From positions 160 to 64,159 of the forward strand of contig DAOKZJ010000001.1 in assembly GCA_035325685.1 (NCBI GenBank): a stretch of 64,000 nt of DNA, written 5' to 3'. The stretch is from Candidatus Moraniibacteriota bacterium. GTDB lineage: Bacteria > Patescibacteriota > Minisyncoccia > Moranbacterales > GWC2-37-73. A program made the translations under genes and the position numbers. The notes below the pieces were generated by a model that was not told the origin of the DNA, did no database searches, and saw only the letters and a program-made list of their open reading frames with translations. Positions 2,060-55,117 of this stretch are shown one piece after another. Positions within the stretch are counted from its first letter, which is position 1; each line of letters opens with the position of its first letter.

Positions 2060-3121
2060 TTAACCTTGAATTATCCTTTCGCGTTCCACCGTTATTCTTT
2101 CCGTTCCGACCAAGCCAAAACGCGCCAAAACTTTAAAAACAGGATCCGCCACCCAGACCACTATTCCCGAAAGAAAAGATCCCAGTGGCAAAATAGTGAG
2201 CAAAAGAAGTGTCGCCAAGAGCAAGGGAAAAGCATTCACCTTCTGATCCGGCATGGTATCCGGAGCCAAATATTCGGCGATACGCTTGTTTATAATCAAG
2301 GTAAATATCTGCGAGACAGACTCGCTCCCTTGCAGCTCCCTTCCAGCCAAAATACCTAGCTGCCTCCTTCCCTCCGCCAAAAGAAGCGCTTGCTGCTGAG
2401 CCATTATCCTTTGGGAAAATTCCTGCGTTTTTTCCCGGGTCTCTCTTTTTGCTACCTGGCGCTGCTCCGGGGTCAATTCCGTGGGAAGATTGTCTTCAAT
2501 CAGCTGTTCCGTTTGCAAATCCATCTCTGTCGGCAAATTTTCCTGCTGGGAACTAAGGATGAATTCATCCACTGTCGCATCTTTTCGAGCCAGGGAAGAA
2601 AATTGCGGACTTACGAAAGCCAGCGCTTTGCCCAGATAATGAGCGCCGCGCGAACCCACTTGGATGCGCGGCATCGCTTTTTCTCCACTACTAGTGGAAA
2701 TGAGTGCGTAATATTGCACTGCCACCATTAGCGCAAGCGCCAAAACCACCAAAGCTTTTCCCGTACGCAAAGATTTGGCCAAATTTATGCGGATATTGAG
2801 ATCCAAATCCGTCCGGATGCGCCTGGCGCCAGCTGCAATAAGAGCTGTGGCCAAAAAGGCCGCCAGCGCCACCTCTTTAGAAGGGGAAAAAAGGAGCGCC
2901 CCGAAACAAACCGCGGCCGCAGCTATTTCCGCAAGCATGAAATCGCGGCACAGAAAGATCGCAAAAGAAAGCAAAAAGAAGACCAACAGAAACCAAAGTG
3001 CCGGCACTGTCCACGTGCTGGCTCCGACGTCAACCGCCGCCCTTTGCACGCTGTGCCAAAATCCCAGCGCCGCAAGCGGCGCAGCCACGGCCAAATAATT
3101 GGCCCATTTATTTTTACGCAT
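2060..3121 (-). CDS. Hypothetical membrane protein
   Basis: 353-aa ORF with N-terminal and C-terminal hydrophobic helices and a central Q/E-rich region. No family recognised. Confidence 0.55.
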   Translation of the reverse strand: MRKNKWANYLAVAAPLAALGFWHSVQRAAVDVGASTWTVPALWFLLVFFLLSFAIFLCRDFMLAEIAAAAVCFGALLFSPSKEVALAAFLATALIAAGARRIRTDLDLNIRINLAKSLRTGKALVVLALALMVAVQYYALISTSSGEKAMPRIQVGSRGAHYLGKALAFVSPQFSSLARKDATVDEFILSSQQENLPTEMDLQTEQLIEDNLPTELTPEQRQVAKRETREKTQEFSQRIMAQQQALLLAEGRRQLGILAGRELQGSESVSQIFTLIINKRIAEYLAPDTMPDQKVNAFPLLLATLLLLTILPLGSFLSGIVVWVADPVFKVLARFGLVGTERITVERERIIQG

Positions 3122-3566
3122 GCTTCCATCTTACCATCGATCCGCCGATAAAAAAACGGGGCAGCCTTTTGGCTACCCCCGGGGAACCGTGGATGCTCAC
3201 TGAGAGCAGATGGGATCCGGGCAATCCCCGCCGTGGATCGGACATCCCTCCTCCTTCCCCCTTCCTCCGCAAAGAGGGGTGCCCGGAGAAGTTTTGGGAC
3301 CATCCACCTTGCACCTCCCCATTTCGGGAGTCACGATTCCAACTCCCACGTCCACCGTTACTTTTTTTTCCCCACTCATACGGCTCCTCCCGCCCAATCT
3401 TCTGGCGCTTCTTTTTGGCGCGGTCTTTGCCGCGCTTAGCTGTCCTTTTCTTATCTCTTTTTTCAATATTTGTCAACACTCTTGCCTAATTTGAGATTTT
3501 CCTTATACTGCCTTAGGATGAATATCCGGCTGTTTTTTAAAATAACCTAAGTGCCAGGAGGAAAAG

Positions 3567-4091
3567 ATGGACCAAAAATCGACACCCAAAAAAGAAAATT
3601 TTTCGGAGTTGGTGGAACATTTCCGCGCCATGTACGAGCAGCTTCGCGATCTCCAAAAAGTTGAACAGCAAAAACATCTTCCTTCGGGAGAAACCACTTT
3701 GGAAGCGCTGGCGCTGCTTTGGAGGAAAACGTTCTCTCCCTTACTGCCCGTTTGCAATATCTGCTTCGTGCTCGAAGAAATCCAGCTCCGTCTCCGCAAA
3801 ATGCATCGCTTCATTTTGTCCTTGAATATCTGTTTGCACTCCGGCAAGGAAAATATTCCCACCCTTTCCCAAATAGAAGCTTCTCTTATCTCTCTTGGAG
3901 AAATAAGAACTCTTACGCGCGAAATCATATCCCTAAGCGACAAGGAACGCATCTTCGATCACACCTGGGAAGAAGCCGTGCGACTACGCCGCACACTCAC
4001 AAGGCTGGAGGCTTCACTTGCAAAGAAGCGCTCCGAAATGCTCAGCACAACAAGCCGGCATGAACTGAGTCACGATTGTCCGACCCAATGA
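3567..4091 (+). CDS. Hypothetical protein (174 aa)
   Basis: Strong SD (caGGAGGaaaag-ATG). First gene of a plus-strand run of small ORFs. No recognisable domain. Confidence 0.55.
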   Translation: MDQKSTPKKENFSELVEHFRAMYEQLRDLQKVEQQKHLPSGETTLEALALLWRKTFSPLLPVCNICFVLEEIQLRLRKMHRFILSLNICLHSGKENIPTLSQIEASLISLGEIRTLTREIISLSDKERIFDHTWEEAVRLRRTLTRLEASLAKKRSEMLSTTSRHELSHDCPTQ

Positions 4092-9335: not shown

Positions 9336-9371
9336 CGGGACCGCACATTGCTTGCGGTCCTTTTTTATTTT
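9336..9371 (+). terminator. Rho-independent terminator
   Basis: ggaccgca-cattgct-tgcggtcc followed by ttttttatttt. Confidence 0.75.
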
Positions 9372-9449
9372 CCCTTCAAAAAAACTCGGGACGTGCTTTG
9401 CCCGCTTGGCCGTCCCTTGCAAAAAGAGACGACCTGCCGGAAAAACACC

Positions 9450-9869
9450 TTACTTGGCCTTGATGGCGATTTTCTTGGGCTTCACTTCCTCGGCCTTAGG
9501 CAAAGATATTTTAAGGATTCCCTTTTCATACGTCGCCTCGGCCTGCTCGCCCTTGACCTGCATCGGCAAGATTACCGAACGCGAGAAGCCGCCCATCCGA
9601 ATCTCTTTGCGATAATAATCTTCGCGGCGCACCTCGCTCTTCCCCTCGGCTTTTCCGGAAATAGTAAGTACATCATTTTCAATCGATATATCCACCTTTT
9701 CCGGATCTATGCCGGAAAGCGCCGTTTCCACGATCACGTTGTCCCTGTCCTGATAAACATCAATTGCCGGAATAAAATCCGCGCCGTCCAATCCGGAGAG
9801 TTCGTCAAACATCCGGTCGAAATCCCTCCACATGAATCCTGGCGTATAGCGCATAATTCCCCTGTTCAT
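9450..9869 (-). CDS. Small heat-shock protein, Hsp20/alpha-crystallin family
   Basis: Alpha-crystallin domain (IDVYQDRDNVIVETALSGIDPEKVDISIENDVLTISGK...). SD gaaaGGGGGtgaaaaat-ATG at the internal Met (MNRGIM). Confidence 0.9.
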   Translation of the reverse strand: MNRGIMRYTPGFMWRDFDRMFDELSGLDGADFIPAIDVYQDRDNVIVETALSGIDPEKVDISIENDVLTISGKAEGKSEVRREDYYRKEIRMGGFSRSVILPMQVKGEQAEATYEKGILKISLPKAEEVKPKKIAIKAK

Positions 9870-9926
9870 ATTTTTCACCCCCTTTCTGTTTATTATTTCA
9901 ACTCTTGCTTTCATCCTCGCGATACC

Positions 9927-10517
9927 CTATTCCACCACCACCCGCGCCGGGCGGATGACGCGCTCCCCCATTTTGTAGCCTTTCTGCACGATTTTCTTTA
10001 TGCGATTGAGGTATTTCTTTTCCCCTTGGCAATGGGTGCATTCCTTATCTTCGACTGCTTCATGGAGAGCCGGATCAAAACTATCCCCTTCCTTGGCGGC
10101 TATCTCCTCCAACCCGCCGCTTTCCAGTACCTGTTCCAACTGTTTTTGGATGTGCATGATGCCTACCAACCAACCGCTCTCCTTTTGATCCTCCGGCACA
10201 TGCTCGGTCGCGCTGCGGAAATTGTCCAGCACCGGAATAAGCTCCAAGACCAGATTCTGCGTGGCATATTTGACCAAATCACGCTGCGCGTCTCCCTGAA
10301 GACGACGGTAATTTTCAAACTCCGCCTGACATCTGCGCCATCCGTCCAGATATTCATCCGCCTGTTTCCTGAGGGAAGCAATCGTTTCTTCTTGCTCCAC
10401 CACTATCTGTTCCTCCACATCCTTGATATCTTTTCTCATTTTGCTATCCTCAGCCGCAGATTCCTTCTCGCTTTTTTTATGCTTTTCGGTCATGATTTTT
10501 TGGTTAAGATTTTTCAA
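9927..10517 (-). CDS. grpE: Nucleotide exchange factor GrpE
   Basis: GrpE signature (LRKQADEYLDGWRRCQAEFENYRRL...VLDNF...SFDPALHEAV). The start is either the TTG at 10517 or the ATG at 10493. Confidence 0.9.
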   Translation of the reverse strand: MKNLNQKIMTEKHKKSEKESAAEDSKMRKDIKDVEEQIVVEQEETIASLRKQADEYLDGWRRCQAEFENYRRLQGDAQRDLVKYATQNLVLELIPVLDNFRSATEHVPEDQKESGWLVGIMHIQKQLEQVLESGGLEEIAAKEGDSFDPALHEAVEDKECTHCQGEKKYLNRIKKIVQKGYKMGERVIRPARVVVE

Positions 10518-10532
10518 ATCCGTGTTGCAATT

Positions 10533-11291
10533 TCAAAATCCCAGTACTCTTGCGGATTCAGTGGCAATTATTATTACCGCCGAACCGCTCAGCATCTTCT
10601 TTACGTATTCGATAAGCGATTTGTTCTTGTCGTAGCGCATGCGCTTGGGTCCGATAAGCGCCAAAATGCCTTTTTCCCCTTGTTTGGTGCGATACGGCGA
10701 CACGATCATCGAACAATTGGAGATGTCTGTGATGGGGTTTTCTTTGCCAATAAAGATGCGCGTCTCGCCGTCTTTCAATTCAGCCATGAGCAAATCGAAT
10801 TTCTCATCCACATAATCCAGCACTTCCGCCAAACGGCACACCTCGTCCAGTTCGCGAAATTCCGGCTGCTCCATCAGCTCGCGCATGCCGAACTCGGAAA
10901 ACTCGTCTTTGTCCAAAATGCCGCTGATTGCCAGATTGCCGCTCAGATGCGACATGAGCTTGGCGGTCGTCTTGGTTAGGCGCGTATGCTGCGCTTTGAG
11001 TTTCAAAAATTCCTTTTGCAATTTGAGCTGCTCCTCGCGCGAAAGCTCCTTGTCAGCCATCACTTTCTCCACGAAAAAGCGATACCCTTTGTCGGTCGGA
11101 ATGCGTCCGGCGCTGGTGTGCGGCTGATGCAAAAAACCTTTCTCTTCCAAGGCCGCCATATCGTTGCGGATCGTAGCCGGACTTACCTGGAAATCATATT
11201 TGTCCACCAGCACTTTGGAACCGACCGGCTCGGCGGTCTGCGTGTATTCCTCAATGATGGCCGCCAATATTTTTTCTTGTCTTGTATTCAT
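10533..11291 (-). CDS. hrcA: Heat-inducible transcription repressor HrcA
   Basis: N-terminal winged HTH (QEKILAAIIEEYTQTAEPVGSKVL...SPATIRNDMAALEEKGFL). Positioned upstream of grpE, with a CIRCE element upstream. Confidence 0.9.
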   Translation of the reverse strand: MNTRQEKILAAIIEEYTQTAEPVGSKVLVDKYDFQVSPATIRNDMAALEEKGFLHQPHTSAGRIPTDKGYRFFVEKVMADKELSREEQLKLQKEFLKLKAQHTRLTKTTAKLMSHLSGNLAISGILDKDEFSEFGMRELMEQPEFRELDEVCRLAEVLDYVDEKFDLLMAELKDGETRIFIGKENPITDISNCSMIVSPYRTKQGEKGILALIGPKRMRYDKNKSLIEYVKKMLSGSAVIIIATESARVLGF

Positions 11292-15488: not shown

Positions 15489-16193
15489 TCAGAACGCAGG
15501 GAATGTTTCCCCTTTTTTCCTTCGTTGAAGCGCATATTTTATTCCTTGGTCGCTGACTCCTAGGCAAAGCAAAGCCTGGAAACGATGCGCAGCAAGCAAA
15601 ATCGCTATCGCTTCTATGGTTTTTTCGCTTATGTTCCCCAGCGGCAAATCGGGGCGGACCTCCCTTATTTTGCCGGCTACGGATTCGACAAACTCCAAGG
15701 ATCTTCCTTTGTGCCAGATCTTGAGTCTGACTCCCGCTCCATCCCGACTGTCGGGGAAAGAAAAGAGCAATATGGTTTTTCCGAGGAGTTTTTGTCTTTT
15801 GGGAGATGATGGACTGGACATCCTCAAAAAGCGCAGCACTTCATGCTTATTCGTATGCCCTTTGAAAGCAAATTCGCCCTTTCTTGCGGATGCGGCGCTG
15901 TTTTTAAGCACGCATCCCTTTTCGTAAGCGATCAGTCTGGCTACCGCCTCTCTGTTTTCTGGCGGCAGGTCAAAAAAATTGAGCGTGGCTTGCTTGTTGA
16001 TCCGCGAAGAATTCAGTTCGCCAAAACTCCTTATGCCCCGCTTGTTGCTCACCAGAAGCCTCACGTGTCCCAAGGGGTCATCTTCCGGATCCGTGAAGAT
16101 CAGCTTGTCATGCACGCTGATGCCCACATGTTTGGTTTCTGCGGCGTCCGGCATCACGAAAATCCTCCGCCACGCGGAAATATCCATTTCCAT
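15489..16193 (-). CDS. Hypothetical protein (~234 aa)
   Basis: SD aaAAGGAGGAGGAG before ATGGAAATGGAT (MEMDISAW...). No family recognised. Confidence 0.55.
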   Translation of the reverse strand: MEMDISAWRRIFVMPDAAETKHVGISVHDKLIFTDPEDDPLGHVRLLVSNKRGIRSFGELNSSRINKQATLNFFDLPPENREAVARLIAYEKGCVLKNSAASARKGEFAFKGHTNKHEVLRFLRMSSPSSPKRQKLLGKTILLFSFPDSRDGAGVRLKIWHKGRSLEFVESVAGKIREVRPDLPLGNISEKTIEAIAILLAAHRFQALLCLGVSDQGIKYALQRRKKGETFPAF

Positions 16194-16341
16194 CTCCTCC
16201 TCCTTTTGCGGCAATAAAATAAAGGTGCGAATTTTTTTTACCACATAATAATTCCTATGTCAAGAAAAAGAACCGTTCCCTGCTTTTGGTGGATAAACGG
16301 TGGTTAAACAGCGATTGCCAAGTATTGAGCGACTGGCTATA

Positions 16342-23164: not shown

Positions 23165-23252
23165 ATGATATCCATGATATCAGCAAAAAAAGGCTTTGTA
23201 AACAAAAAGCTAAGCTTTAAACACGCTTTAAAGCTTAGCTTTGAAAAGAAAT

Positions 23253-25163
23253 TTAGTCCTTGCGCATCGAGCCGATCATGGAACGAATGTCCTCCAAATT
23301 GGATTCCACTTTTTTGCGTGTCGGTTCAAACTTCTTGGGACCCAGTCCGCTGAGCGAAGAAAGCGACATTGGTTTTTCTTCCGGGGCGATGACCTTGCGC
23401 TCTACCTGGCGCACGGACTTAGCCGGCGCGGATTGGATTGGCCGCTGGCGCATTTCAGGACCTTTGGGCGCAAAAGGCTTTCTGCCGATAGGCTTGGATG
23501 CGGCGTTCATTCCTTGCCGAAAGTCGTTCCGCCCGGAAGGCGCGCTTTGCGAAGCCGGTCTGGCAGCCGCCTGAACCGGTACGATTTTGTCCTGAATTAA
23601 GGGCTTGCCCATGGCAGCAAAACGCTCTTCCTTGAGCTTGGCTTTGGCTTGCATTCTTTGGAAATCCTTAAGGCAATCCTTGCAGAAAGTGGGTCTTTTG
23701 CCGTCCGGCTTGAAAGGCACTTTTATCTGGTCGCCGCATGTTTCACACAGCGCATCAAAAAGTTCCTTTTCTTCTTTGGGCGGATCAGCCGGAGCGGGAT
23801 TTGCGGAAAAATCCTCACTCGACGCAACTTGGCTCGCCTGGATCGATACTCCCGCACCGCCGCTTTGTACCGGAGCGGAAACGGGCGGCATCATTCCAGC
23901 CCAACGCGCAATCTTTTCTTCCACTTCCGCGCGAGGCGATCCATAGCGTTCGCGCGACACGGCTATCACCTTCTCCTCATTTTCCTTGGTGTCATCTATA
24001 TAGATCGGCGGCAATGTGGTGGCCGAAAAAGCGTCTCCGGCGATACCGTCGATCATCAGCTTGAGATATATGTTGTATTTGGGCAGATTGACGATATCGT
24101 TCTGCATGAAAACGGGCGCAAATTCCTTTTCCAAAAATTCCGCATCCATCGCGCCCACCCGAAACGAAATGATGGAACCCACGTTGCCAAAGATGGCATT
24201 GCGCACCGTTTCGGCGATCTGCTCGACGTACTGGTTGGCCAAAATAAGGTTAAGCCGGTATTTGCGCGCTTCCGAAAGGATGTTGGCAAAAGATTCGGTC
24301 GAGAAATTTTGAAACTCGTCCACGTACAGGTAAAAATCCTTGCGCGTTTCCTCCGGAATGTCCACGCGACCCATCGCCGCCAGCTGAATCTTAGTGATCA
24401 TCATGGCGCCAAGCAACGCGCTGGCATCCTCCCCGATTCTTCCTTTGGAGAGGTTCATGATCAAAATCTTGCGCTCATCCATGATGGTACGCACATCAAA
24501 AGAAGATTGGGGTTGTCCCACGATATTGCGGATAAGCGAATTGGACAAAAACTGCCCCACTTTATTTTGAATCGGAGAAACCACTTCTTGGAGCACTTTG
24601 TCGCTCCACTTGGGAAACTCATCCACCCAGAACTGGCGGATGACCGGATCGGTAATCCTTTCCACCACCTTGTCGCGGTATTTTTTATCCACCAAGATGC
24701 GGGTCACGCCCAAGAGCGTACTGCCCGGATATTCCAAAAGACCCATAATGGCGTTGCGCAAGATATATTCCAATCGCGGCCCCCATGAATCCGCCCAGAT
24801 CTTTTTAAACACCCCGACCAAACCGGAAGCCACCAAGTGGCGATATTCCGGATCGATCGATTCCATCGCGTTAAATGCAATCGGAAAGCCTTGGTCAGCC
24901 GGATTGAAATAAATGACATCATTGATGCGTTCGGACGGAATGGCTTTGAGCAGCTTTTCGGCGGTGTCGCCGTGCGGATCGATGTAACAAACCCCGTGTC
25001 CGTTGCGGATATCTTGGACGGCCATGTTTTCGAGCAAATTAGTTTTGCCCATGCCGGTCTTTCCAATGATATACATGTGCCTCCTGCGGTCGTCCGTCTT
25101 GATACCAAACACCCTCTCCTGGTTGCGGAAATTTGTTTTGGCAAAAAAAGTGATTTCATCCAT
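23253..25163 (-). CDS. VirD4/TraD/TrwB-like (type IV coupling protein family) P-loop ATPase with a C-terminal zinc ribbon and a basic low-complexity tail
   Basis: Walker A IIGKTGMGKTNLL followed by CYIDPHGD, Walker B LYVDEFQNF, and ARKYRLNLILANQY. A CxxC-x17-CxxC zinc ribbon (CETCGDQ...FCKDCL) follows, then a ~130-aa P/K/R/S-rich tail. No N-terminal TM helix. Confidence 0.75.
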   Translation of the reverse strand: MDEITFFAKTNFRNQERVFGIKTDDRRRHMYIIGKTGMGKTNLLENMAVQDIRNGHGVCYIDPHGDTAEKLLKAIPSERINDVIYFNPADQGFPIAFNAMESIDPEYRHLVASGLVGVFKKIWADSWGPRLEYILRNAIMGLLEYPGSTLLGVTRILVDKKYRDKVVERITDPVIRQFWVDEFPKWSDKVLQEVVSPIQNKVGQFLSNSLIRNIVGQPQSSFDVRTIMDERKILIMNLSKGRIGEDASALLGAMMITKIQLAAMGRVDIPEETRKDFYLYVDEFQNFSTESFANILSEARKYRLNLILANQYVEQIAETVRNAIFGNVGSIISFRVGAMDAEFLEKEFAPVFMQNDIVNLPKYNIYLKLMIDGIAGDAFSATTLPPIYIDDTKENEEKVIAVSRERYGSPRAEVEEKIARWAGMMPPVSAPVQSGGAGVSIQASQVASSEDFSANPAPADPPKEEKELFDALCETCGDQIKVPFKPDGKRPTFCKDCLKDFQRMQAKAKLKEERFAAMGKPLIQDKIVPVQAAARPASQSAPSGRNDFRQGMNAASKPIGRKPFAPKGPEMRQRPIQSAPAKSVRQVERKVIAPEEKPMSLSSLSGLGPKKFEPTRKKVESNLEDIRSMIGSMRKD

Positions 25164-25231
25164 AAAAAGTTTTTTCTCCTTGCTTCCCTCCCCTTTTTAA
25201 GGAGAGAGCCAGGGTGAGGTTTTTCCCTTTT

Positions 25232-26524
25232 TTATTCAATAGGCAAATTGGCTGGCGCGCCACTGCGACGAGCTTCCACGCGCGTCACCGAAGGAGCGAC
25301 CACTTGCATATCCGGCAAATGAAAAACCGTGGCCAATTCTTCCGTGTTGAGCGCAAATGTTTTGCCCGCGTCACTGCGACTGCGATAACGACCTAAGATC
25401 TTGCGCTGGCGAAAACGCAAGCGCGGCTTGATGAATACGAAGTTGGCGAAAGTCTTGGAATCGTTATCCGGCTTGAACCCATTGAGGTTGTCGTCATTGA
25501 ATTGCTTGATTCCTCCGATAAAGGAACTGACGAAAGTTTTGTCAAATCCCTGCTTGCGCCCAATAAGAATCATGCGCATCTTCACATCATAAAATATCTT
25601 GCCCAAGCTGTCCTCCACGGCTTTGAGCACGTCCCTTTCCACGGGAGAAAGACGAAATTCCAAGGGCTGATCTTCTTTTTTGCTTTTTTCAGTAAGTTTC
25701 ACCTCGCCCTTGAGCGCTCCGATACTGAATGCGTTAAAAATGACGTCCTTAAGATCCGTCCAGACTTTGCTTAAAAAGCTTTCCTCCTCCACGACTTTTC
25801 CTTTAAGCTTATCCGCCGCTTTTCGGCCCTCTTTCGCCGCCCACGCTGGCGAAAGAGGGGTGATCACATACTGAAGCCAGATTTTTTGGCCCGGCGGAAG
25901 TTTGCCCATCGCTTCCACCAATCCGGACAGGGGATCGATCATCTTGCCGGTAACCGATTCTTCAAACCTGTCGTAAGTGCGGATCGGAAAAGCGTCTGCC
26001 TTGGTCAATTCAAAATCGGTACCCCAAAGATCCCACTGCTTGTTGGGCACAACCTTGGGCACGTCATTGACGTAATCCTCCGCTTCGCGCACTTCCACAT
26101 CCGGATATTGCGCGTAAAGATGCGCTTCCACCAAGTGGCGGTATTTGCGCAGCGTACGGATATAAAAGTGTACCTGTCCGCCGTCACTGACCAATTCCAA
26201 ACTGAAAGAGTCTGCAAACATGCCCTGGACATATATTTCCGTAGGCAAAAATCCTTTTTCCACCCCCGCCATGCCGGCAAAAAGCGCCTCCATCGGCTTG
26301 GGACTTTTTTCAATATCCTTGGGCGGAATTATTTCCAAAAGCATCCAATCCAAACTAAGCCAATACTGTACCCTTATATGATACAGCCAGAAAATCATAA
26401 AAATGGGAAAAAGCATCGCCGGTAAAGCGACGTACCACGCGTAAGAAAACACGTGCAAAGTCTGCGACAGCGAAGTTCCCAAATTAACTGCTGCTTGGCT
26501 GAATGCCTGTTGGACAAGTTCCAT
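25232..26524 (-). CDS. Membrane-anchored hypothetical protein (430 aa)
   Basis: One N-terminal TM helix (YAWYVALPAMLFPIFMIFWLY), then a large soluble domain. It lies 68 nt upstream of the ATPase and co-oriented with it. Confidence 0.6.
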   Translation of the reverse strand: MELVQQAFSQAAVNLGTSLSQTLHVFSYAWYVALPAMLFPIFMIFWLYHIRVQYWLSLDWMLLEIIPPKDIEKSPKPMEALFAGMAGVEKGFLPTEIYVQGMFADSFSLELVSDGGQVHFYIRTLRKYRHLVEAHLYAQYPDVEVREAEDYVNDVPKVVPNKQWDLWGTDFELTKADAFPIRTYDRFEESVTGKMIDPLSGLVEAMGKLPPGQKIWLQYVITPLSPAWAAKEGRKAADKLKGKVVEEESFLSKVWTDLKDVIFNAFSIGALKGEVKLTEKSKKEDQPLEFRLSPVERDVLKAVEDSLGKIFYDVKMRMILIGRKQGFDKTFVSSFIGGIKQFNDDNLNGFKPDNDSKTFANFVFIKPRLRFRQRKILGRYRSRSDAGKTFALNTEELATVFHLPDMQVVAPSVTRVEARRSGAPANLPIE

Positions 26525-26575
26525 GTGCCTATTTCGCCCGAGAAACGCCCGGGCGGCCTTTTTGCAAAAGGTGCC

Positions 26576-27628
26576 CTATTTGCCGAGCGTATAATGGCCG
26601 GCGGCGTTCTTGCGGAAAAAATTGTTCAGATTTATAACTACCGTGGACTTTTTCACTTGGCGTACTTTCAACACTTCTTCGATCACCTGGTCGCGACTGA
26701 GTCCCTTGGGATTCTTTTTGAGAATATCTTCAATGACATCCTTGACCGTTCCGGTTTTATACCCCCATTCACTCAGAGCGTATATGCCGCGTCCGACCAG
26801 CACGAAATTGTCATCCTTGATCAGTTCATTATGCACGGTTTGCGGATGAGTGGCGCGCTTGCCCAATTTAAAACTGTCTATGCGCTTGGCTATCTCGCGG
26901 AAATGAAGCGGCTCCTTGGCCTCCTTGAGTATCAAATATGCCCTCTCGCGGGTCCCCTTGGGAGTAACTTCCTTCCACCTGCTAAGACCCCACTTACCGA
27001 AGGTGTTACTCTTTATATCTTCAGCCGCCCCCAAAAAATTCCTGATGGATTTTTCCGTGGCCACACCCTTACCCAAAGATGCCACCATCTTGGAAACAAG
27101 CTCGGCCTCTTCCAGGGGACGCTCTTCTTTTTCCAAAACCGCCCGCGCCGCCGCATGCACTCTCTCCCAATCCTTAAGCTCGAAAGAATTCAAGGCGTAA
27201 GAATATTTGAGCTTCCCTCTTATTTCCACGCCCTTGACGTCGCTAAGACATTCCAGAAAAAACCGCGCCGCGCCGGCCTCTTTGGAATCATTGGCGCCGA
27301 GGGCCGCGATGAGCGACTCTTCATCCATTATACCATCATGTGCCGAAACTTCATAGCGGATAGCCTCCCTTACCGGTGCCAGCGCTTCTTCGTCTTTAAT
27401 TTGGGACACCTTGCGACATATTTCGCGAATAATCTGACGGATACGTTCGCGTGTCACGCCGTATTTGTTGCCGATTTCTTCGAGCGTAAGCATCTTGGCT
27501 TTGCCGATGCCGTAACGCGATCTGACTATTTCGCCGCTCCGCTCGGGAAAGTGTACCGACAACGCTTCCAGCGCTGCCAGAAAACTCACTTTTTTTTCGA
27601 ATTTTTCGCCACCTTGGGTGTTTTTCAT
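26576..27628 (-). CDS. Sigma-70 region 4-like HTH + HARE-HTH domain protein (putative DNA-binding regulator)
   Basis: The N-terminus has a sigma70_r4-type HTH (IVRSRYGIGKAKMLTLEEIGNKYGVTRERIRQI). The C-terminus resembles HARE-HTH (LHFREIAKRI...FVLVGRGIYALSEWGY). Confidence 0.65.
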   Translation of the reverse strand: MKNTQGGEKFEKKVSFLAALEALSVHFPERSGEIVRSRYGIGKAKMLTLEEIGNKYGVTRERIRQIIREICRKVSQIKDEEALAPVREAIRYEVSAHDGIMDEESLIAALGANDSKEAGAARFFLECLSDVKGVEIRGKLKYSYALNSFELKDWERVHAAARAVLEKEERPLEEAELVSKMVASLGKGVATEKSIRNFLGAAEDIKSNTFGKWGLSRWKEVTPKGTRERAYLILKEAKEPLHFREIAKRIDSFKLGKRATHPQTVHNELIKDDNFVLVGRGIYALSEWGYKTGTVKDVIEDILKKNPKGLSRDQVIEEVLKVRQVKKSTVVINLNNFFRKNAAGHYTLGK

Positions 27629-27707
27629 ATATTTGCCTTAAGAAAATATGGATTATCGCATTCACATTATACTAACATATATTATAATTTTGTCAATGAT
27701 TTATTTC

Positions 27708-27748
27708 CTTATCCCAAAAAACGACTTATTCCCCCATGAATAAGTCGT
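27708..27748 (-). terminator. Rho-independent terminator after pheT
   Basis: On the minus strand: cgacttattc-atggggg-aataagtcg followed by ttttttggg. Confidence 0.6.
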
Positions 27749-27776
27749 TTTTGCTTTTTTGCGAAGATTTCGCCGT

Positions 27777-30265: not shown

Positions 30266-31315
30266 TTAGAATTGTTCGGTAAACCTCAGATCTCCACTGT
30301 GGAAAAGACGGATGTCCGGGATGCGACTGCGCATCATCAAAAGCCTTTCCAAGCCGAACCCCCAGGCGAATCCTTGCCATTGTCCGCGCCTGTATCCGGC
30401 AGCGACAAACACTTCCTGGTTGACCATGCCGGCGCCGCCCACTTCCAGCCAGCCGGTATGCTTGCAAGAAGCGCATCCTCGCCCTCCGCAAACCGTACAG
30501 CTGATATCAAATTCAAAGCTCGGCTCCGTAAACGGAAAGAAGCTGGGACGCAACCTCACGGTCACATCCTGCCCAAAAAAACGCGAAAAAAACTCCTGCG
30601 CCACATGCTTGAAGTTGCCCACATTTATTTCTTTATCCACCATCAGCGCCTCGAACTGGTAAAAAGTATGTTCGTGTGTCGCATCCGTCGCCTCGTTACG
30701 AAAGCATTTCCCCGGAGCAATGATGCGCAGCGGCGGCTTATGGGTCTGCATATAACGCACCTGCACCGGCGAAGTGTGCGTGCGCAAAAGAATCCTTTCT
30801 CTCTTTTTCTCCGCTCTGAAATTTGGATTTTCGGATTTTATCCAAAAAGTATCCCATTTGTCGCGTGCCGGATGATCTTTGGGTATGTTGAGCGCGTCAA
30901 AATTGTGCCATTCCGTTTCTATGTCCGGACCATCCGCAACCGCAAAGCCCATCGCCCCGAAAATATCTTCAATTTCTTCCTGAATAAGCGTAAGTGGGTG
31001 CAGATGCCCTCTTTTGATTTTCTTGGCCGGGAGCGTCACGTCCAGATTTTTAGCTGCCGCACCCAACTGCAAGTTCCTGAGCTCTTCTTCCTTTCGGGCA
31101 AAGGCCGCCTCTATTTCCGCCCTCGCTTCGTTGGCTACCTTACCCGCCTCAAAACGCTCCTTTTCTTCCATATCTTTAAGGGAGCGGAGCAGCGCCGTCA
31201 GTTCACTTTTACGCCCGGCGTATTTTACCCGCGCACTTTCCAAATCAGCCAAAGATGAAGCTGCTGCCGCGGCGGCCAATGCCTTGCTTTTGAGATCGAA
31301 GATTTTTTGCTGCAT
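30266..31315 (-). CDS. pheS: Phenylalanine--tRNA ligase alpha subunit
   Basis: Class II motifs (LRTHTSPVQVR, FRNEATDATHEHTFYQFE, GFAWGFGLERL). Start at MQQKIFDL. Confidence 0.95.
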   Translation of the reverse strand: MQQKIFDLKSKALAAAAAASSLADLESARVKYAGRKSELTALLRSLKDMEEKERFEAGKVANEARAEIEAAFARKEEELRNLQLGAAAKNLDVTLPAKKIKRGHLHPLTLIQEEIEDIFGAMGFAVADGPDIETEWHNFDALNIPKDHPARDKWDTFWIKSENPNFRAEKKRERILLRTHTSPVQVRYMQTHKPPLRIIAPGKCFRNEATDATHEHTFYQFEALMVDKEINVGNFKHVAQEFFSRFFGQDVTVRLRPSFFPFTEPSFEFDISCTVCGGRGCASCKHTGWLEVGGAGMVNQEVFVAAGYRRGQWQGFAWGFGLERLLMMRSRIPDIRLFHSGDLRFTEQF

Positions 31316-31528
31316 AAACGTAAAAAAAGAAAAATATGCGCCGCTGCCAAACGGCGACGATACTGTAATACTACCAAGGCACCCCTTGATTTGCAACTGC
31401 CGTTTTTGAGCCAAGGAAAAGTCTTTTTCGCGCTTCTCTTGACTTTAAATTATTTTAGGTGTATAATTAGAGATTACGTCCCCTGGTTACCCAAGTTTTT
31501 TGACAAAAATGAAAGAGAGGAAGAACTC

Positions 31529-32299
31529 ATGCTTTCCAAAACAGCGCTACTTACCCGCAAAGCGGAACATTGTCTCCATAAGCACTGGGAAAAAACGTGC
31601 GCTTGGTGGTCGGAAAAGCCTAATTCCAGGCAAATAATCTGGGCCCTTGCTTGCGCCTCAACCGCTTCCTTGTTGTTTTTATGGATTCATCATTTTTTGG
31701 CTTTCACGATTTTGCGCCTTTGGGCGGATGTGCTGATGCTCCTGCTGAGCATATCCGTAATGATGCTTTTCTTTTTGCTCATAACCAAAACTCTTCGCCT
31801 CAAAAGCGAAGTGGAAAAGGTTTCCGTGAAAGATCCCCTTACCGGGCTGTACAACCGCCGCTTCCTGGAAATGCAACGGGATGCGATAGAAGAGCAAGCT
31901 AGGCGTACCGGACTGCCTTACGGCGTAGCCATGATCGATGTCGACAACCTCAAACCCATCAACGACACTTTCGGCCACGCAAGCGGAGACCGGTTGCTTA
32001 AGGAAGTAGCCGCGCTCATCAAAGGAACTATCCGTAAAAACGACCAAGCCTTTCGCCTGGGCGGGGACGAATTCATGATCATCTGTTTTTTTGGGAAAGA
32101 CGAATCGTCCGACTCCTTCGAAGACAGGCTGCGCGAATCCCTGGGCAGATTTCCCTTCCGCGAACAAGGAGTGGACGTCGTGGCCTCCGCCTCTTTGGGA
32201 GTCGCCATCTGTGTGGATGCGCGAAAAAATTCGCTTGAAAGCGTCATCCATGTAGCGGACATGAACATGTACCGCGAAAAAGCGGCGCGTAAACGCTGA
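31529..32299 (+). CDS. GGDEF-domain diguanylate cyclase with an N-terminal membrane anchor
   Basis: DPLTGLYNRR...IDVDNLKPINDTFGHASGD...RLGGDEF. SD aaAGAGAGGaagaactc-ATG. Two N-terminal TM helices. Confidence 0.85.
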   Translation: MLSKTALLTRKAEHCLHKHWEKTCAWWSEKPNSRQIIWALACASTASLLFLWIHHFLAFTILRLWADVLMLLLSISVMMLFFLLITKTLRLKSEVEKVSVKDPLTGLYNRRFLEMQRDAIEEQARRTGLPYGVAMIDVDNLKPINDTFGHASGDRLLKEVAALIKGTIRKNDQAFRLGGDEFMIICFFGKDESSDSFEDRLRESLGRFPFREQGVDVVASASLGVAICVDARKNSLESVIHVADMNMYREKAARKR

Positions 32300-40550: not shown

Positions 40551-41795
40551 CTATTCCCACCCGCTCATCAGGATGCCCAAATCCTTGGTATTAACTATGC
40601 CGTCGCTGTTTTTGTCCGAAGCGGCGTTGGCAGTGAGCCAAGCAGCAATAAACTGAAGAAAGTCAAAGATGTCATAAGATGCCCCCTGGGAAGAACCGAA
40701 AGTTATCGGATAGCCGCTTGCATTGGCGGAGCCATTGGCGTCTACCACGTAAAGATAGGCAGAAGAGCCATCGGAAAAAGATCCTTGGTTGACACTTATC
40801 TCCAGTGCCGTATCCGCCCATTGGTTTTGGGGTAGTTGGATTTCACAATGACTACTTGCTGCTTTGGTCGAGCTTTCGCATATCTCCACCCTGGCCAAAG
40901 TGTTATCCACGTATATTTCTCCAAAATCTACCGTTGCCGCATCGGGGCTATAATCAAATTCCGGCATCCAGCCTAGGGCGCCTATGCCGTTGATGCTGGC
41001 AAGATTTCCCTCCGAAGCTCCTCCGCTCATACAATCGACTTTGCCCGAATAACAATCTAAAAATTCCTCGTTATTTACAGAAAGTCTTATTCTGGGATGA
41101 TAAGGTAAAGATCCGTTATCTAAAATCTTTTCCATCCTGTTCCAAGCGCCTCTGTTTATAAATGATTCGTGCCAGGCGCCAAACCTGTACCCTTGGGAAA
41201 AATCATAACCGGTAGTGTGCTCCGGCGACCAAATAATGGAAGCAATTTCCCATTGTCCTGTTGGCGTAAATCTTGTAAATTTATTTTGCGAATTATCCAG
41301 GGTACCATTTGCACTCACCCAATTCCACCAAGTAACATACATGCTCTTATTATTCGCTTCAGGAAAAACTTCTCCTCCCACGGCCGCCCATTCATGTGCC
41401 GCGTCAATATTTGAATTTGGATTGTTGCTGTATTTTGCAGTCCATTTTCCCCTGGGGTTTATGGTTTTATAATAGGGGGATTCTCCGGCATAACCTTCGT
41501 TCCAAGGATAACTTGCCCCGACAGGAATCCTATTTCCGTTTGACAAGCCAGCATACATGCCGTCTACCGGGTCCCACTTGAGAGGAGCTACCGGATTTTT
41601 TATTCCAAATCCATTCCCCGAAATTGTCACGCTCTGTCCATGCCGCAAGGCATTGCTCACGCTTGAAATGCTTGGCGCGGCAAAAGCAGTCTGCGCGGCA
41701 AAAAAAGACCCTACTGATATAGCCAAACATATTTTATTACGTAACTCGTTACGTAATAAGTTACGTAATTTCTTTTTCTTCATTTCTATATGCAT
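40551..41795 (-). CDS. Secreted protein with a C-terminal dockerin-like Ca-binding segment (paralog A)
   Basis: Signal peptide, then AAPSISS...GQSVTISGNGFG (TIG-like), a W/G/N-rich body, and the C-terminus SDKNSDGIVNTKDLGILMSGWE. The last ~95 nt are identical to paralog B. Confidence 0.7.
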   Translation of the reverse strand: MHIEMKKKKLRNLLRNELRNKICLAISVGSFFAAQTAFAAPSISSVSNALRHGQSVTISGNGFGIKNPVAPLKWDPVDGMYAGLSNGNRIPVGASYPWNEGYAGESPYYKTINPRGKWTAKYSNNPNSNIDAAHEWAAVGGEVFPEANNKSMYVTWWNWVSANGTLDNSQNKFTRFTPTGQWEIASIIWSPEHTTGYDFSQGYRFGAWHESFINRGAWNRMEKILDNGSLPYHPRIRLSVNNEEFLDCYSGKVDCMSGGASEGNLASINGIGALGWMPEFDYSPDAATVDFGEIYVDNTLARVEICESSTKAASSHCEIQLPQNQWADTALEISVNQGSFSDGSSAYLYVVDANGSANASGYPITFGSSQGASYDIFDFLQFIAAWLTANAASDKNSDGIVNTKDLGILMSGWE

Positions 41796-41891: not shown

Positions 41892-43142
41892 CTATTCCCA
41901 CCCGCTCATCAGGATGCCCAAATCCTTGGTATTAACTATGCCGTCGCTGTTTTTGTCCGAAGCGGCGTTGGCAGTGAGCCAATTCACCACTAGTTGCAAA
42001 AAGTCAGAAACAGAATAAGTCTGCGGCTGCGCTTGGCTGCCAATGGTAATTGGATATCCCTGACTTACGGAATTGTTCTGATCCGTCACAAAAAGATAAG
42101 CTGTCGCACCGTTGCTGAAGCTGCCTTGATTGACCGTGAAAGATACCTGGGAACTGTTCCATGCGCTCGGTATCTGGATTTCGCGATGCGTACAGTCCGC
42201 ATAAACCGGCGCATTTCCTATCTCCACCCGCGCCCATGTCCGATCTATATACAAATCGTCTATGTACGCATCCGCGCCGGTATTGGCCGGCATGGAAATA
42301 GGATCACCCGGATCTTCATCAGTCGCCCAATAATGTCCGATGCGTATTTCCGTGGGCAGGACATTGCGCAAACGGAATACAACGGTATTGGAAAAGGGAG
42401 TTGAAGGACGCGAATTTACATAGCGATACATGACCCCGTCGCCCACGCCGGGAGTCGACGTCTTGTAAATGACTTGCTCATGCTTCCAGGTGCCATACAT
42501 GCGATCCTCGTCATTCCAAAGCTCCACGCCCGGTGGCTGCGTCGGATACGCATCATCCCAAATCGCAAAAAGCCCCCCATTTCCGGGCCTGAATATGCCC
42601 GGATTCATTTGCAAAGTTATGTCATTGGTCCACACCCGCCAGGGTTTGTAATTGCGCCCATTTGTCCCGCTGCTATCCAACGGCGTCAAGCGATACCAAT
42701 AATCCAAATACAGTAACGGATAGCCGTTATCGTAATCATTGACACAAAGCGAAACGTTTTCCGTGGCAGGACGAAAGGAATGCTTGCTGGAAATTGAATG
42801 ACCCGAAGATCCGCGTGAAACTTCGGAAGAATAGCGCGCCAGATCGGATCCCGTTCCGCCACTCCAGCCGGTAACCAACTGGCCGGAAGCTCCTTGTTCA
42901 AAATTATCCCAGCGATAAGGAGCGGCGCTGCTCTTTGTTCCGAAATTGCTTCCCGAAACGGTGATTGTCTGCCCTTGCTGGACAGTGCCTTGCAAAGAAG
43001 AGATGCTTGGCGCAGCATGAGCCACATTCATCCCCCAAAAGATTGCGCTCAGCGCACCCAAAAGCGTTCCGCCATATAACAAGCCGGGTAATTTATTTTT
43101 TCTCGCTCCTGTTGCCATAAAAATAGTTGTAGTAGGGGACAT
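41892..43142 (-). CDS. Secreted protein with a C-terminal dockerin-like segment (paralog B)
   Basis: Same N-terminal AAPSISS...GQTITVSGSNFG module and an identical C-terminus. The start is uncertain (ATG 43142, ATG 43118, or TTG 43208). Confidence 0.65.
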   Translation of the reverse strand: MSPTTTIFMATGARKNKLPGLLYGGTLLGALSAIFWGMNVAHAAPSISSLQGTVQQGQTITVSGSNFGTKSSAAPYRWDNFEQGASGQLVTGWSGGTGSDLARYSSEVSRGSSGHSISSKHSFRPATENVSLCVNDYDNGYPLLYLDYWYRLTPLDSSGTNGRNYKPWRVWTNDITLQMNPGIFRPGNGGLFAIWDDAYPTQPPGVELWNDEDRMYGTWKHEQVIYKTSTPGVGDGVMYRYVNSRPSTPFSNTVVFRLRNVLPTEIRIGHYWATDEDPGDPISMPANTGADAYIDDLYIDRTWARVEIGNAPVYADCTHREIQIPSAWNSSQVSFTVNQGSFSNGATAYLFVTDQNNSVSQGYPITIGSQAQPQTYSVSDFLQLVVNWLTANAASDKNSDGIVNTKDLGILMSGWE

Positions 43143-43208
43143 ATATCTTTTTATTTGCACCTTGCCCCTTATCTTTTCTATTATACCACCTCTCCTTGTT
43201 TGACCCAA

Positions 43209-54649: not shown

Positions 54650-55117
54650 GGGGAAAATGAGTATGTTGCCTGCCCAAGCAAACATGTAAGCCGGATTCTG
54701 TCACTTCCGCAAAACAGAAGCGGACAACTATTTATCTAGCTCTGGCGTTTCCGCCAGAATCAAGCGGCACTCCGCCGACGCAAAAGCGTCGCCGGCACGG
54801 CCTTGCACCACGCAGGGTTTGCCATCTTCCGCCGTCGCCGGCGGAGAACTGCCGTAGCCCACATCCTTTGCTAATCAGCTGATGAAGCAAAGTCGTGTAC
54901 CTCGGCAAACTTTTCACCTTTTGCCAGCGCTGCGCACTGGCTAGTATAGTCTCTGTGGCACTTTCCCTTCCACGGCGTCACCGCTGTGGCGGTGGGCGTT
55001 ACCCACTGCGCCTAATCCCGACAAGTCGGAATTGGTGTCCGGACTTTCCTCTCTCCGCCTAAGCGGACAGCAGCTGTCCCGCCTGCTACGACAGGCAACA
55101 CACTCATCTTTTCCCGG
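54650..55117 (-). ncRNA. rnpB: RNase P RNA (bacterial-type)
   Basis: The minus strand has GGCGGAGAGAGGAAAGTCCGGACACC (P4 5' strand) and ACAGAATCCGGCTTAC (P4 3' strand / CR-V). An extended P1 pairs 5' GAGUGUGUUGCCUG with 3' CAGGCAACAUACUC. Length is about 450 nt; the ends are approximate. Confidence 0.8.

Follow-up and report, generated by a model that had tools for sequence, protein, structure and literature searches.

A large part of bacterial diversity belongs to the Patescibacteria (candidate phyla radiation, CPR), which are unable to synthesize nucleotides, lipids, or most amino acids and rely on an essential machine resembling a type IV secretion system (T4SS). In S. epibionticum, the T4SS is essential and its locus has no recognizable coupling protein or relaxase (Wang et al. 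2023; PMC10633639). Patescibacteria T4SSs make VirB2-like pilins (PMC10633639). VirB4 has been found in 2,417 Patescibacteria genomes (80%), and TrsD, a protein resembling the VirB4 N-terminal domain, adjoins it in the T4SS loci (PMC12102498). The same survey reported 5,713 homologues of type IV coupling proteins (T4CPs) in 2,918 of 3,035 genomes (96%), 148 of them near virB4, kept VirD4-like t4cp1 and TcpA/FtsK-like t4cp2 apart in its table, and counted 109 relaxases in 103 of the 3,035 genomes (PMC12102498). Quinonero-Coronel et al. (2025) described the S. epibionticum t4cp as not essential and suggested that it "may be exapted for other functions" (PMC12102498). The orphan T4CP of Patescibacteria has thus already been noted in the literature, though it has not been dissected (PMC12102498). 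Here, we describe a three-gene unit (genes A, B, and C) with a coupling-type ATPase in a stretch of 64,000 nucleotides from a Candidatus Moraniibacteriota genome (contig DAOKZJ010000001.1, assembly GCA_035325685.1), hereafter the window. B and C most likely form a core membrane translocase serving a T4SS-like apparatus encoded elsewhere in the genome.

The unit consists of three co-oriented open reading frames (ORFs) on the minus strand. Gene A (26576-27628, 350 residues) encodes a sigma-70 region 4 helix-turn-helix (HTH) followed by HARE-HTH-type winged helices. Gene B (25232-26524, 430 residues) encodes a protein of Pfam family DUF8128 (PF26449), which is the anchor and N-terminal-domain half of a T4CP. 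Gene C (23253-25163, 636 residues) encodes a P-loop ATPase with a zinc ribbon and a basic, low-complexity tail. Judged by sequence comparison, B and C are two polypeptides of one Gram-positive-type T4CP split by gene fission. Fused homologues in which both proteins find their counterparts in the same order carry this finding. PHROG 5156, a phage family of 824 positions, matches B at 76-358 and C at 407-806, and Bacillus phage G gp156 (825 residues) is matched by B at residues 50-320 (E 4e-11) and by C at 381-752 (E 2e-46). An 812-residue plasmid T4CP of Embleya (Streptomycetaceae; WP_331738717) has a transmembrane (TM) segment at 34-56 and then a B-like region (hhalign E 2.4e-4 over 302 columns, including ...ELAALAHLP...PPARIP... 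at the junction), which is followed by T4SS-DNA_transf, TrwB_AAD_bind, and TraG-D_C. Such fused homologues, and an end of B and a start of C that are conserved yet predicted to be unstructured, show B to be the missing half of C. The C terminus of B and the N terminus of C would be the two sides of a former intramolecular linker, and the PPxxLP peptide of B together with the first ~30 residues of C would hold the halves together.

Protein C had been described from its letters as a VirD4/TraD-like ATPase without a TM segment, and Pfam matches, invariant motifs, and hydropathy all agree with this description. Its ATPase domain (residues 1-420; 23904-25163, minus strand) has an all-alpha insertion at about residues 105-229. 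Walker A (G34-KTGMGK-T41; 25041-25064, minus strand) is invariant in 42 sequences, as are D282, E283, F284, Q285, and N286 of the combined Walker B and T4CP signature (Y278-LYVDEFQN-286; 24306-24332, minus strand). The motifs GKTGMGKT, YIDPHGD, DEFQNF, and ARKYRLNLILANQY are all present and are invariant or nearly so in 42 homologues. C passes the Pfam cut-offs for TrwB_AAD_bind (E 3.3e-9) and TraG-D_C (E 9e-5), and thus has a VirD4-type nucleotide-binding domain with Walker A and B. The VirB4 profiles CagE_TrbE_VirB and AAA_10 gave no match to C, and a C profile compared with the Protein Data Bank (PDB) returned nothing beyond TrwB and DotL around the P-loop. An AlphaFold2 (AF2) model covering residues 1-505 is of moderate quality (mean predicted local distance difference test, pLDDT, of 65). 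In this model, the all-alpha domain is formed by eight helices (residues 105-229) between core strands, with a local pLDDT of ~62 to 91 by 10-residue block. The modeled core matches DotL (19.3), the DndH C-domain (18.6), the VirB4 C-terminal domain (18.2), TrwB (17.3), Cag-beta (16.1), HerA (13.7), and FtsK (7.1). Consequently, the model places C in the VirD4/VirB4/DndH branch of the FtsK-HerA superfamily, and within that branch, the sequence profiles favor a T4CP. C has neither the alpha/beta motor fold and gamma winged helix of FtsK/SpoIIIE nor the HAS-barrel N-domain, HerA ATPase, and NurA or other nuclease partner of HerA systems. Membership in an unrelated FtsK/HerA family, which the preliminary description had named as a possible objection, does not apply, as the profiles place C with T4CPs and the FtsK fold is far away.

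The first 39 residues of C are largely invariant although predicted with a pLDDT below 50. C contains no hydrophobic segment and hence no N-terminal TM anchor on its own polypeptide; the anchor is supplied in trans by B, and it is in cis in the Embleya homologue. Beyond the motor, C carries the two parts anticipated in the preliminary description, a CxxC-x17-CxxC zinc ribbon and a basic, proline-rich tail, put there at ~130 residues and amounting to 136. The ribbon is a treble clef (residues 466-499; 23667-23768, minus strand; PF23477, zf_Tbcl_2, E 1.9e-11; TIGR04272, E 2.2e-12) found in 47 of 74 C homologues, and its presence shows no correlation with that of A. The CxxC-x17-CxxC domain type binds zinc experimentally in small proteins of Methanosarcina mazei (PMC12704099). 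The tail (residues 500-636; 23256-23666, minus strand) is rich in Pro, Ala, and Ser (K+R 29, D+E 13, P 14) and ends in a short conserved helix motif (NLEDIRSMIGSMRKD). Tails of homologues are variable, usually ending in a DLxxLRxxL helix, of which NLEDIRSMIGSMRKD is the version in the window, and/or in KPGQxIKF; these motifs look like docking peptides.

Protein B was taken in the preliminary description for a single-TM, 430-residue membrane protein upstream of the ATPase. The anchor holds, but a separate partner it is not, since B corresponds to the N-terminal half of the same coupling protein. A Kyte-Doolittle scan places a single N-terminal TM helix at residues ~25-50 (26375-26452, minus strand), where the AF2 model has a long helix (residues 2-57). 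In the model, residues ~60-410 (25295-26347, minus strand) make up an alpha/beta domain folded like the N-terminal domain of VirB4 (TrwK). The last ten residues (421-430, SGAPANLPIE-COOH; 25235-25264, minus strand) are the conserved C-terminal peptide (K)KGxPPxxLP[IVFT]x. A recognizable P-x-x-(L/I)-P ending stands at or within ~10 residues of the C terminus in 79 of 80 loci, and the peptide is predicted to be disordered (pLDDT <50) and corresponds to the pre-ATPase linker of the fused homologues. PF26449 is present in the precomputed Pfam annotation of a protein 100% identical to B, in all 120 listed homologues, and on neighbors in three related Moranbacteria loci (L001 to L003); the family comprises 1,913 representatives at 50% clustering. 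Sequence searches of B against the PDB gave no match, fold comparison alone being informative, and no relative was confirmed among IMG/VR viral contigs. No paper mentions DUF8128.

Outside Patescibacteria, relatives of B and C stand among DNA-processing and secretion genes. In the Embleya plasmid, the order is a PrgI-like gene, a 643-residue ATPase, the fused T4CP, Replic_Relax (E 2.7e-36), and NlpC/P60; in phage SPO1, gp27.4 is followed by gp27.3, a Replic_Relax protein (E 2.9e-12), with an MreB-like "partition protein" nearby. The "DNA translocation operon" of phage 0305phi8-36 comprises a relaxase, a TM-less coupling ATPase, and VirB6-like and MreB-like proteins and is dispensable in the laboratory (PMC3357382). 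Just upstream of gp156, phage G encodes a second ATPase, gp155 (positions 2196-3845 of the locus; P-loop_TraG, AAA_10), and the model of gp155 is likewise similar to the B fold (Foldseek E 1e-6); two VirB4/T4CP-like proteins thus stand in tandem in this phage. Pontibacillus has a B-like ORF with a TM segment and, in fragments, a C-like gene, both 8 to 15 kb from a cluster with VirB4 (CD1110 family) and a pilin-like protein. Taken alone, the ATPase domain of C matches 365 plasmid records, mainly from Streptomyces, Bacillus, and haloarchaea and mostly annotated as T4SS coupling proteins. The exception among the contexts examined is a Sulfitobacter plasmid, where an orphan relative of C without the N-domain lies beside transposases.

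Some of these relatives are of interest in their own right. The Pontibacillus sp. ALD_SL1 genes lie in region 325000-372000 of NZ_CP062975.1, a circular 'plasmid unnamed' of 897,839 bp labeled 'non-mobilizable'. Besides the Gram-positive T4SS cluster, with its CD1110-family VirB4 and Mbov_0395-type pilin-like protein, this replicon carries chromosome-like genes for a penicillin-binding protein (PBP), ClpX, a single-stranded DNA-binding protein (SSB), and a tubulin-like protein, and a flagellar gene cluster; this points to a chromid or, alternatively, to a second small genome that was deposited as a plasmid. The C-like gene, 3' of the B-like ORF, is broken into at least four pieces, and a GGDEF gene lies a few kilobases from the B- and C-like genes. 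In Priestia megaterium (NZ_CP045273, 693240-695600), a homologue of the C-type ATPase is matched in three tblastn pieces over ~2.4 kb, and in Miltoncostaea oceani (NZ_CP064357, 739574-740887), it carries the annotation 'LAGLIDADG family homing endonuclease'. Both cases suggest intein insertions in the C-type ATPase family, which would fit its high conservation.

Within Patescibacteria, we scanned one genome per GTDB species with a B-family profile, confirming at least 587 of 600 candidates listed, and kept 80 loci spanning Moran-, Uhr-, Magasanik-, Kerfeld-, Doudna-, Buchanan-, Terry-, Portnoy-, Lipton-, and Niyogibacteria and Paceibacterota. C follows B directly on the same strand in 72 of the 80 (median gap 22 nt); the eight exceptions comprise four contig ends, three loci without an adjacent C (L026, L045, and L082), and L034, which was left out. 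In 62 loci, A lies before B, the two being a median of 58 nt apart, and all three genes stand together in 62/80. The neighborhood check proposed in the preliminary description thus found the trio to be syntenic. secD/secF lie upstream in 47/80 loci, mnmA downstream in 20/80, and alaS in 12/80, and from these neighbor counts, the ancestral order is read as secD-secF-(A)-B-C-mnmA-alaS. In two of the loci without an adjacent C (L045 and L082, both metagenome-assembled genomes, MAGs), A is followed by B and then by a gene that is YceG/MltG-like by its N-terminal sequence alone; alaS lies further downstream in both (in L045 also mnmA), and C has been either relocated or lost. Databases hold at least 8,000 homologues of C, some of them named "CxxC-x17-CxxC domain-containing protein" in Patescibacteria MAGs.

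Between the window and related loci, the ATPase domain of C is 62 to 87% identical, compared with 63 to 65% for PheS, 44 to 46% for PheT, 35 to 59% for AlaS, 38 to 65% for MnmA, 49 to 57% for SecD, 42 to 79% for SecF, 34 to 60% for B, and 30 to 51% for A. It is unusual for a coupling-type ATPase to evolve more slowly than aminoacyl-tRNA synthetases, and this pattern indicates a core, heavily constrained function. Inherited vertically, B and C belong to the core genes of Patescibacteria, and purifying selection on them is unusually strong. The obligate DUF8128 partner with its VirB4-N-like fold, the split-gene interpretation, the A-B-C operon with a conserved promoter, and the extreme conservation of the C ATPase domain appear to be new.

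Gene A is the third, more loosely attached member. NCBI lists an exact counterpart of its product (100% identity) from a Candidatus Moranbacteria MAG under the name 'HTH domain-containing protein'. Pfam bears out the fusion of sigma-70 region 4 to HARE-HTH previously proposed for it, and across the trio, the profile searches recovered TrwB_AAD_bind, TraG-D_C, HARE-HTH, Sigma70_r4, and a zinc ribbon, all among the families previously named for the check. Region 4 (residues 28-74; 27407-27547, minus strand; TLEEIG..YG.TRERIRQI, nearly invariant; Sigma70_r4 E 7.7e-11) matches solved SigA/RpoD region 4 structures at E about 5e-7. The HARE-HTH lies at residues 228-288 (26765-26947, minus strand; QTVHNELIKD.RFVLVGRGIYAL.EWGY, nearly invariant; E 8.6e-15). 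Since the segments at 97-225 and 292-350 give sub-threshold HARE-HTH matches (E 0.031 and 0.075), A probably consists of region 4 and three tandem winged helices. Sigma region 2 or 3 was not detected in A, where only region 4 (residues 28-74) was found, so A is not a sigma factor; NCBIfam sigma matches to it cover the C-terminal ~50 profile positions only and lie far below the cut-offs. A hydropathy scan found no TM segment in A. Two candidate relatives were rejected: the A family does not resemble the Embleya Replic_Relax nickase (hhalign probability 0.1%), and BLASTP gave no match between A and the sigma-like protein near the Pontibacillus homologue, which is of the Tn916-Orf7 type (HTH_16/Sigma70_r4_2). 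A may be the operon regulator or, by analogy with TraM binding the TraD tail, a nucleic-acid adaptor that would dock on the tail of C. Its link to B and C is one of synteny (62/80), which could in part be inherited gene order.

The three genes form an operon-like unit, as suggested earlier from their 51-nt (A-B) and 68-nt (B-C) gaps, and two flanking hairpins, a conserved promoter, and the spacing agree with this. The pheT terminator reported before the trio is present as a 15-bp hairpin directly 3' of the pheT stop codon (27717-27752), the upstream boundary of the unit. The unit ends with an intrinsic terminator after C (16-bp stem and T-run; 23206-23242, minus strand), beyond which lies a promoter-like site for mnmA (23202-23174). 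Upstream of A, there is a sigma-70-type promoter (TTGACA, 16 nt, TG-n-TAGTAT with an extended -10; 27696-27669, minus strand). The TTGACA of the preliminary description stands, but its TATAAT does not: this hexamer overlaps the TAGTAT site and would imply a 19-nt spacer. All 11 of 11 loci of the Moranbacteria type have TTGACA with the extended -10 before A although their surrounding sequence differs, so it is not a chance match, and the promoter of A-B-C is real and conserved.

What the unit does is a matter of weighing these observations. On balance, the whole is best explained, and somewhat probably, by B-C acting as a split T4CP that is the motor for a T4SS-like apparatus encoded elsewhere. 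B would supply the single-pass anchor and a cytoplasmic domain of VirB4-N fold, C would supply the RecA-like motor, and together they would assemble into an ATPase ring on the cytoplasmic side of the membrane. Such a complex would move nucleic acid or nucleoprotein across the membrane, possibly as import, and, in the least certain step, would feed or pull substrate for a monoderm-type T4SS-like apparatus. A monoderm-type T4SS without its own coupling protein is present elsewhere in ~80% of Patescibacteria genomes (PMC12102498, PMC10633639), and it shares the evolutionary affinity of B-C with Gram-positive systems. The earlier idea of a "self-contained" module for DNA translocation, uptake, or defense fits the translocation motor proposed here; self-containment is unsupported, given the T4SS elsewhere, and defense is disfavored. 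Several observations weigh against the explanation preferred here. No T4SS gene lies in the 64-kb window, as the preliminary description had said of the immediate neighborhood. T4CP homologues are more widespread than VirB4 (96% and 80% of genomes), which hints at a T4SS-independent role. In S. epibionticum ML1, a t4cp that may or may not be the orthologue of C was reported to be non-essential in transposon sequencing (Tn-seq), the T4SS genes being essential. Relaxases are almost absent from the phylum, which makes classical DNA export unlikely. Furthermore, the zinc ribbon is missing in about one-third of C homologues and so cannot be essential to the core mechanism, the linkage of A (62/80) is only moderately stronger than that of SecDF (47/80), and the model of C is of moderate quality.

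A rather unlikely alternative is that B-C is a T4SS-independent housekeeping nucleic-acid translocase, a ring motor acting alone or with a different channel (such as ComEC or type IV pilus DNA uptake) or handling chromosome or RNA at the membrane, for which A would tether or select nucleic acid. The excess of T4CP homologues over VirB4 speaks for it, as do the conservation of C above that of aminoacyl-tRNA synthetases, the fixed housekeeping synteny secDF-(A)-B-C-mnmA-alaS, the zinc ribbon and basic tail of C, and the weak matches of C to the archaeal importer ATPases CedD (E 1.2e-6) and CedB (E 4.6e-4). However, the non-Patescibacteria relatives examined adjoin T4SS, relaxase, or nickase genes, save the Sulfitobacter copy, and loss of comEC has no effect on S. 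epibionticum viability (PMC12857230). Separate FtsK-like proteins also appear to exist (t4cp2 matches, Table S3; an annotated ftsK in TM7x); a replacement of FtsK by C is disfavored by these genes and by the large fold distance.

The direction of transport may also be inward. Relaxases are nearly absent, nucleotides must come from hosts, and a cultivated member of the Patescibacteria takes up host RNA (bioRxiv 10.64898/2026.06.21.733656); on these grounds, the motor may pull nucleic acid inwards. In its full form, A-B-C would be an ancestral, phylum-wide motor pulling host RNA and/or DNA in through the essential T4SS-like pilus apparatus, a proposal that we regard as unlikely. It would work as conjugation machinery in reverse, by analogy with the archaeal Ced/Ted importers, and the zinc ribbon and basic tail of C would join the winged helices of A in handling the incoming polymer. 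If true, import would provide the missing mechanism for the nucleotide-scavenging, RNA-feeding lifestyle of the cultivated member (bioRxiv 10.64898/2026.06.21.733656).

Protein rather than nucleic acid could be the substrate. B-C as a protein- or pilin-handling ATPase, comparable to VirB4 in pilin extraction or to EccC/EccE of type VII secretion, would be in line with the nearly equal match of C to the VirB4 C-terminal domain and to T4CPs, the fold of B and its EccE match, the secD-secF genes upstream in 47/80 loci, and the VirB2-like pilins mentioned above. We find this improbable: the profiles place C with T4CPs (TrwB_AAD_bind, TraG-D_C, TraD, VirD4-like) and not with VirB4, the genomes already encode VirB4 together with an adjacent TrsD-like N-domain protein, and the partner proteins in relatives are DNA-processing enzymes. 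The SecDF adjacency, moreover, may be inherited gene order.

A defense function, which the preliminary description had left open, is very unlikely. The trio would then be an anti-phage module akin to MADS (mad8) or DndH, with the HARE-HTH of A sensing modified DNA. A defense-finder (PADLOC) search matched mad8 to C (E 3e-20) and to no other member of the trio, HARE-HTH is known from restriction enzymes (Pfam description), and region 4 of A matches MzaA. The MzaA match, however, covers generic sigma region 4 only, and neither A nor B matches any part of a MADS or Dnd system; the unit and the window are free of nucleases, methylases, and other mad/dnd genes, so the trio does not belong to these systems. 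Its occurrence in practically all lineages at a constant housekeeping position also speaks against defense, and the 62 to 87% identity in C is the opposite of patchy, fast-evolving defense islands. Finally, that the unit is a remnant or cargo of a conjugative or mobilizable element, or a prophage, has hardly any credibility: relatives of the family do occur on plasmids, in integrative and conjugative element (ICE)-like clusters, and in phages, but neither an integrase, relaxase, or replication gene nor a shift in GC content is seen here, selection is strongly purifying, and the orthologous position in 80 species-level genomes effectively refutes it.

The surroundings of the unit are consistent with a chromosomal core region. 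Of the 30 window ORFs scanned with Pfam, 20 had matches, all housekeeping, and 10 had none; the RecR, L21, AlaS, MnmA, PheS/T, SecD/F, and GGDEF ORFs were recognized from translations and related loci only. The genes include DnaJ/K, HrcA, CorA, CysS, DnaB, RecR, L21, AlaS, MnmA, and PheS/T, as well as SecD/F, SecA, MurB/C/G, FtsW, TrmD, PBP2, MreB/C, and YceG. Neither the Pfam scan nor the recognized ORFs revealed a T4SS gene, relaxase, or integrase anywhere in the 64-kb window, and no paralogue of A, B, or C was found there; over the trio, GC content does not depart from that of its surroundings. Thus, the statement that no other T4SS genes are nearby holds for the entire window, the context is that of neither a T4SS nor a mobile element, in agreement with the earlier view that this is not a conjugation system, and the system, unrecognized at first reading, has no name.

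Other features of the window are recorded here for completeness. A GGDEF-domain protein with TM segments (31307-32299, plus strand) is encoded divergently between pheS and a small gene after secF, and the gene occupies the same position in L001 to L003. In those loci, a PIF1-family helicase gene stands 2 to 4 genes 3' of C (~11 to 13 kb in locus coordinates); it is not at that position in the window, where mnmA directly follows C. The sole Rfam family at gathering threshold in the window is a bacterial class A RNase P RNA (54671-55089, minus strand, 177 bits). Five ORFs among the housekeeping genes have no Pfam match (E<=1e-4/1e-5): 40551-41795 (414 residues, minus strand), 41892-43208 (438, minus), 9348-10979 (543, plus), 2060-3121 (353, minus), and 15489-16244 (251, minus). 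The ORF at 9348-10979 could be spurious, lying on the plus strand where most of the region reads from the minus strand.

These results give the question of macromolecule traffic between ultra-small epibionts and their hosts three concrete genes. The "orphan T4CP" of 96% of genomes proves to be a two-gene unit, usually with a dedicated multi-winged-helix DNA-binding protein upstream; DUF8128 gains a structural and functional assignment, and the route of a TM-less coupling ATPase to the membrane is explained.

Compared with known systems, A shares its region 4 HTH with SigA/RpoD, and its HARE-HTH matches the N-domain model of the RNA polymerase (RNAP) delta subunit (RpoE of Bacillota; TIGR04567, E 2.4e-8). 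It differs from delta in scoring 34.0 bits against a cut-off of 42 and in having the HARE-HTH internally, followed by another winged-helix-like segment and no acidic tail. The archaeal Ced/Ted DNA importers are conjugation-derived ATPases that import DNA and thus a precedent for an inward motor, and CedD and CedB match C weakly in NCBIfam; Ced membership is nevertheless unsupported, as C scores 27.5 bits against a family cut-off of 600 and CedA-like partners are absent. From VirB4 (TrwK) and the TrsD + VirB4 pair, C differs in matching no VirB4 sequence profile and grouping with T4CP profiles, and Patescibacteria genomes carry a separate bona fide VirB4.

With T4CPs (VirD4, TrwB of R388, DotL/IcmO, TraD/TraG), C shares a RecA-like nucleotide-binding domain with an inserted all-alpha domain, Walker A/B, the DEFxN signature, and the TraG-D_C region; TrwB and DotL are its best sequence and structure matches, and its tail, like that of TraD, is disordered with short conserved motifs. 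It departs from them in that the anchor is on a separate protein, B, as a single helix with a 350-residue VirB4-N-like domain, in being encoded without an adjacent T4SS or relaxase, in the added zinc ribbon, and in being chromosomal, phylum-wide, and far more conserved than plasmid T4CPs. The closest counterparts are the fused T4CPs (Embleya; phage G gp156; SPO1 gp27.4; 0305phi8-36 orf201, PMC3357382). These are single polypeptides, 22 to 33% identical to B and C, that adjoin Replic_Relax nickase/relaxase and T4SS or VirB6-like genes and have no gene A in their neighborhoods, and the phage members are without the N-terminal TM anchor. They nonetheless have the same two modules in the same order, an N-terminal TM segment in the Embleya and Pontibacillus proteins, and the junction motif ELAxxHLP...PPxxLP in common with B and C.

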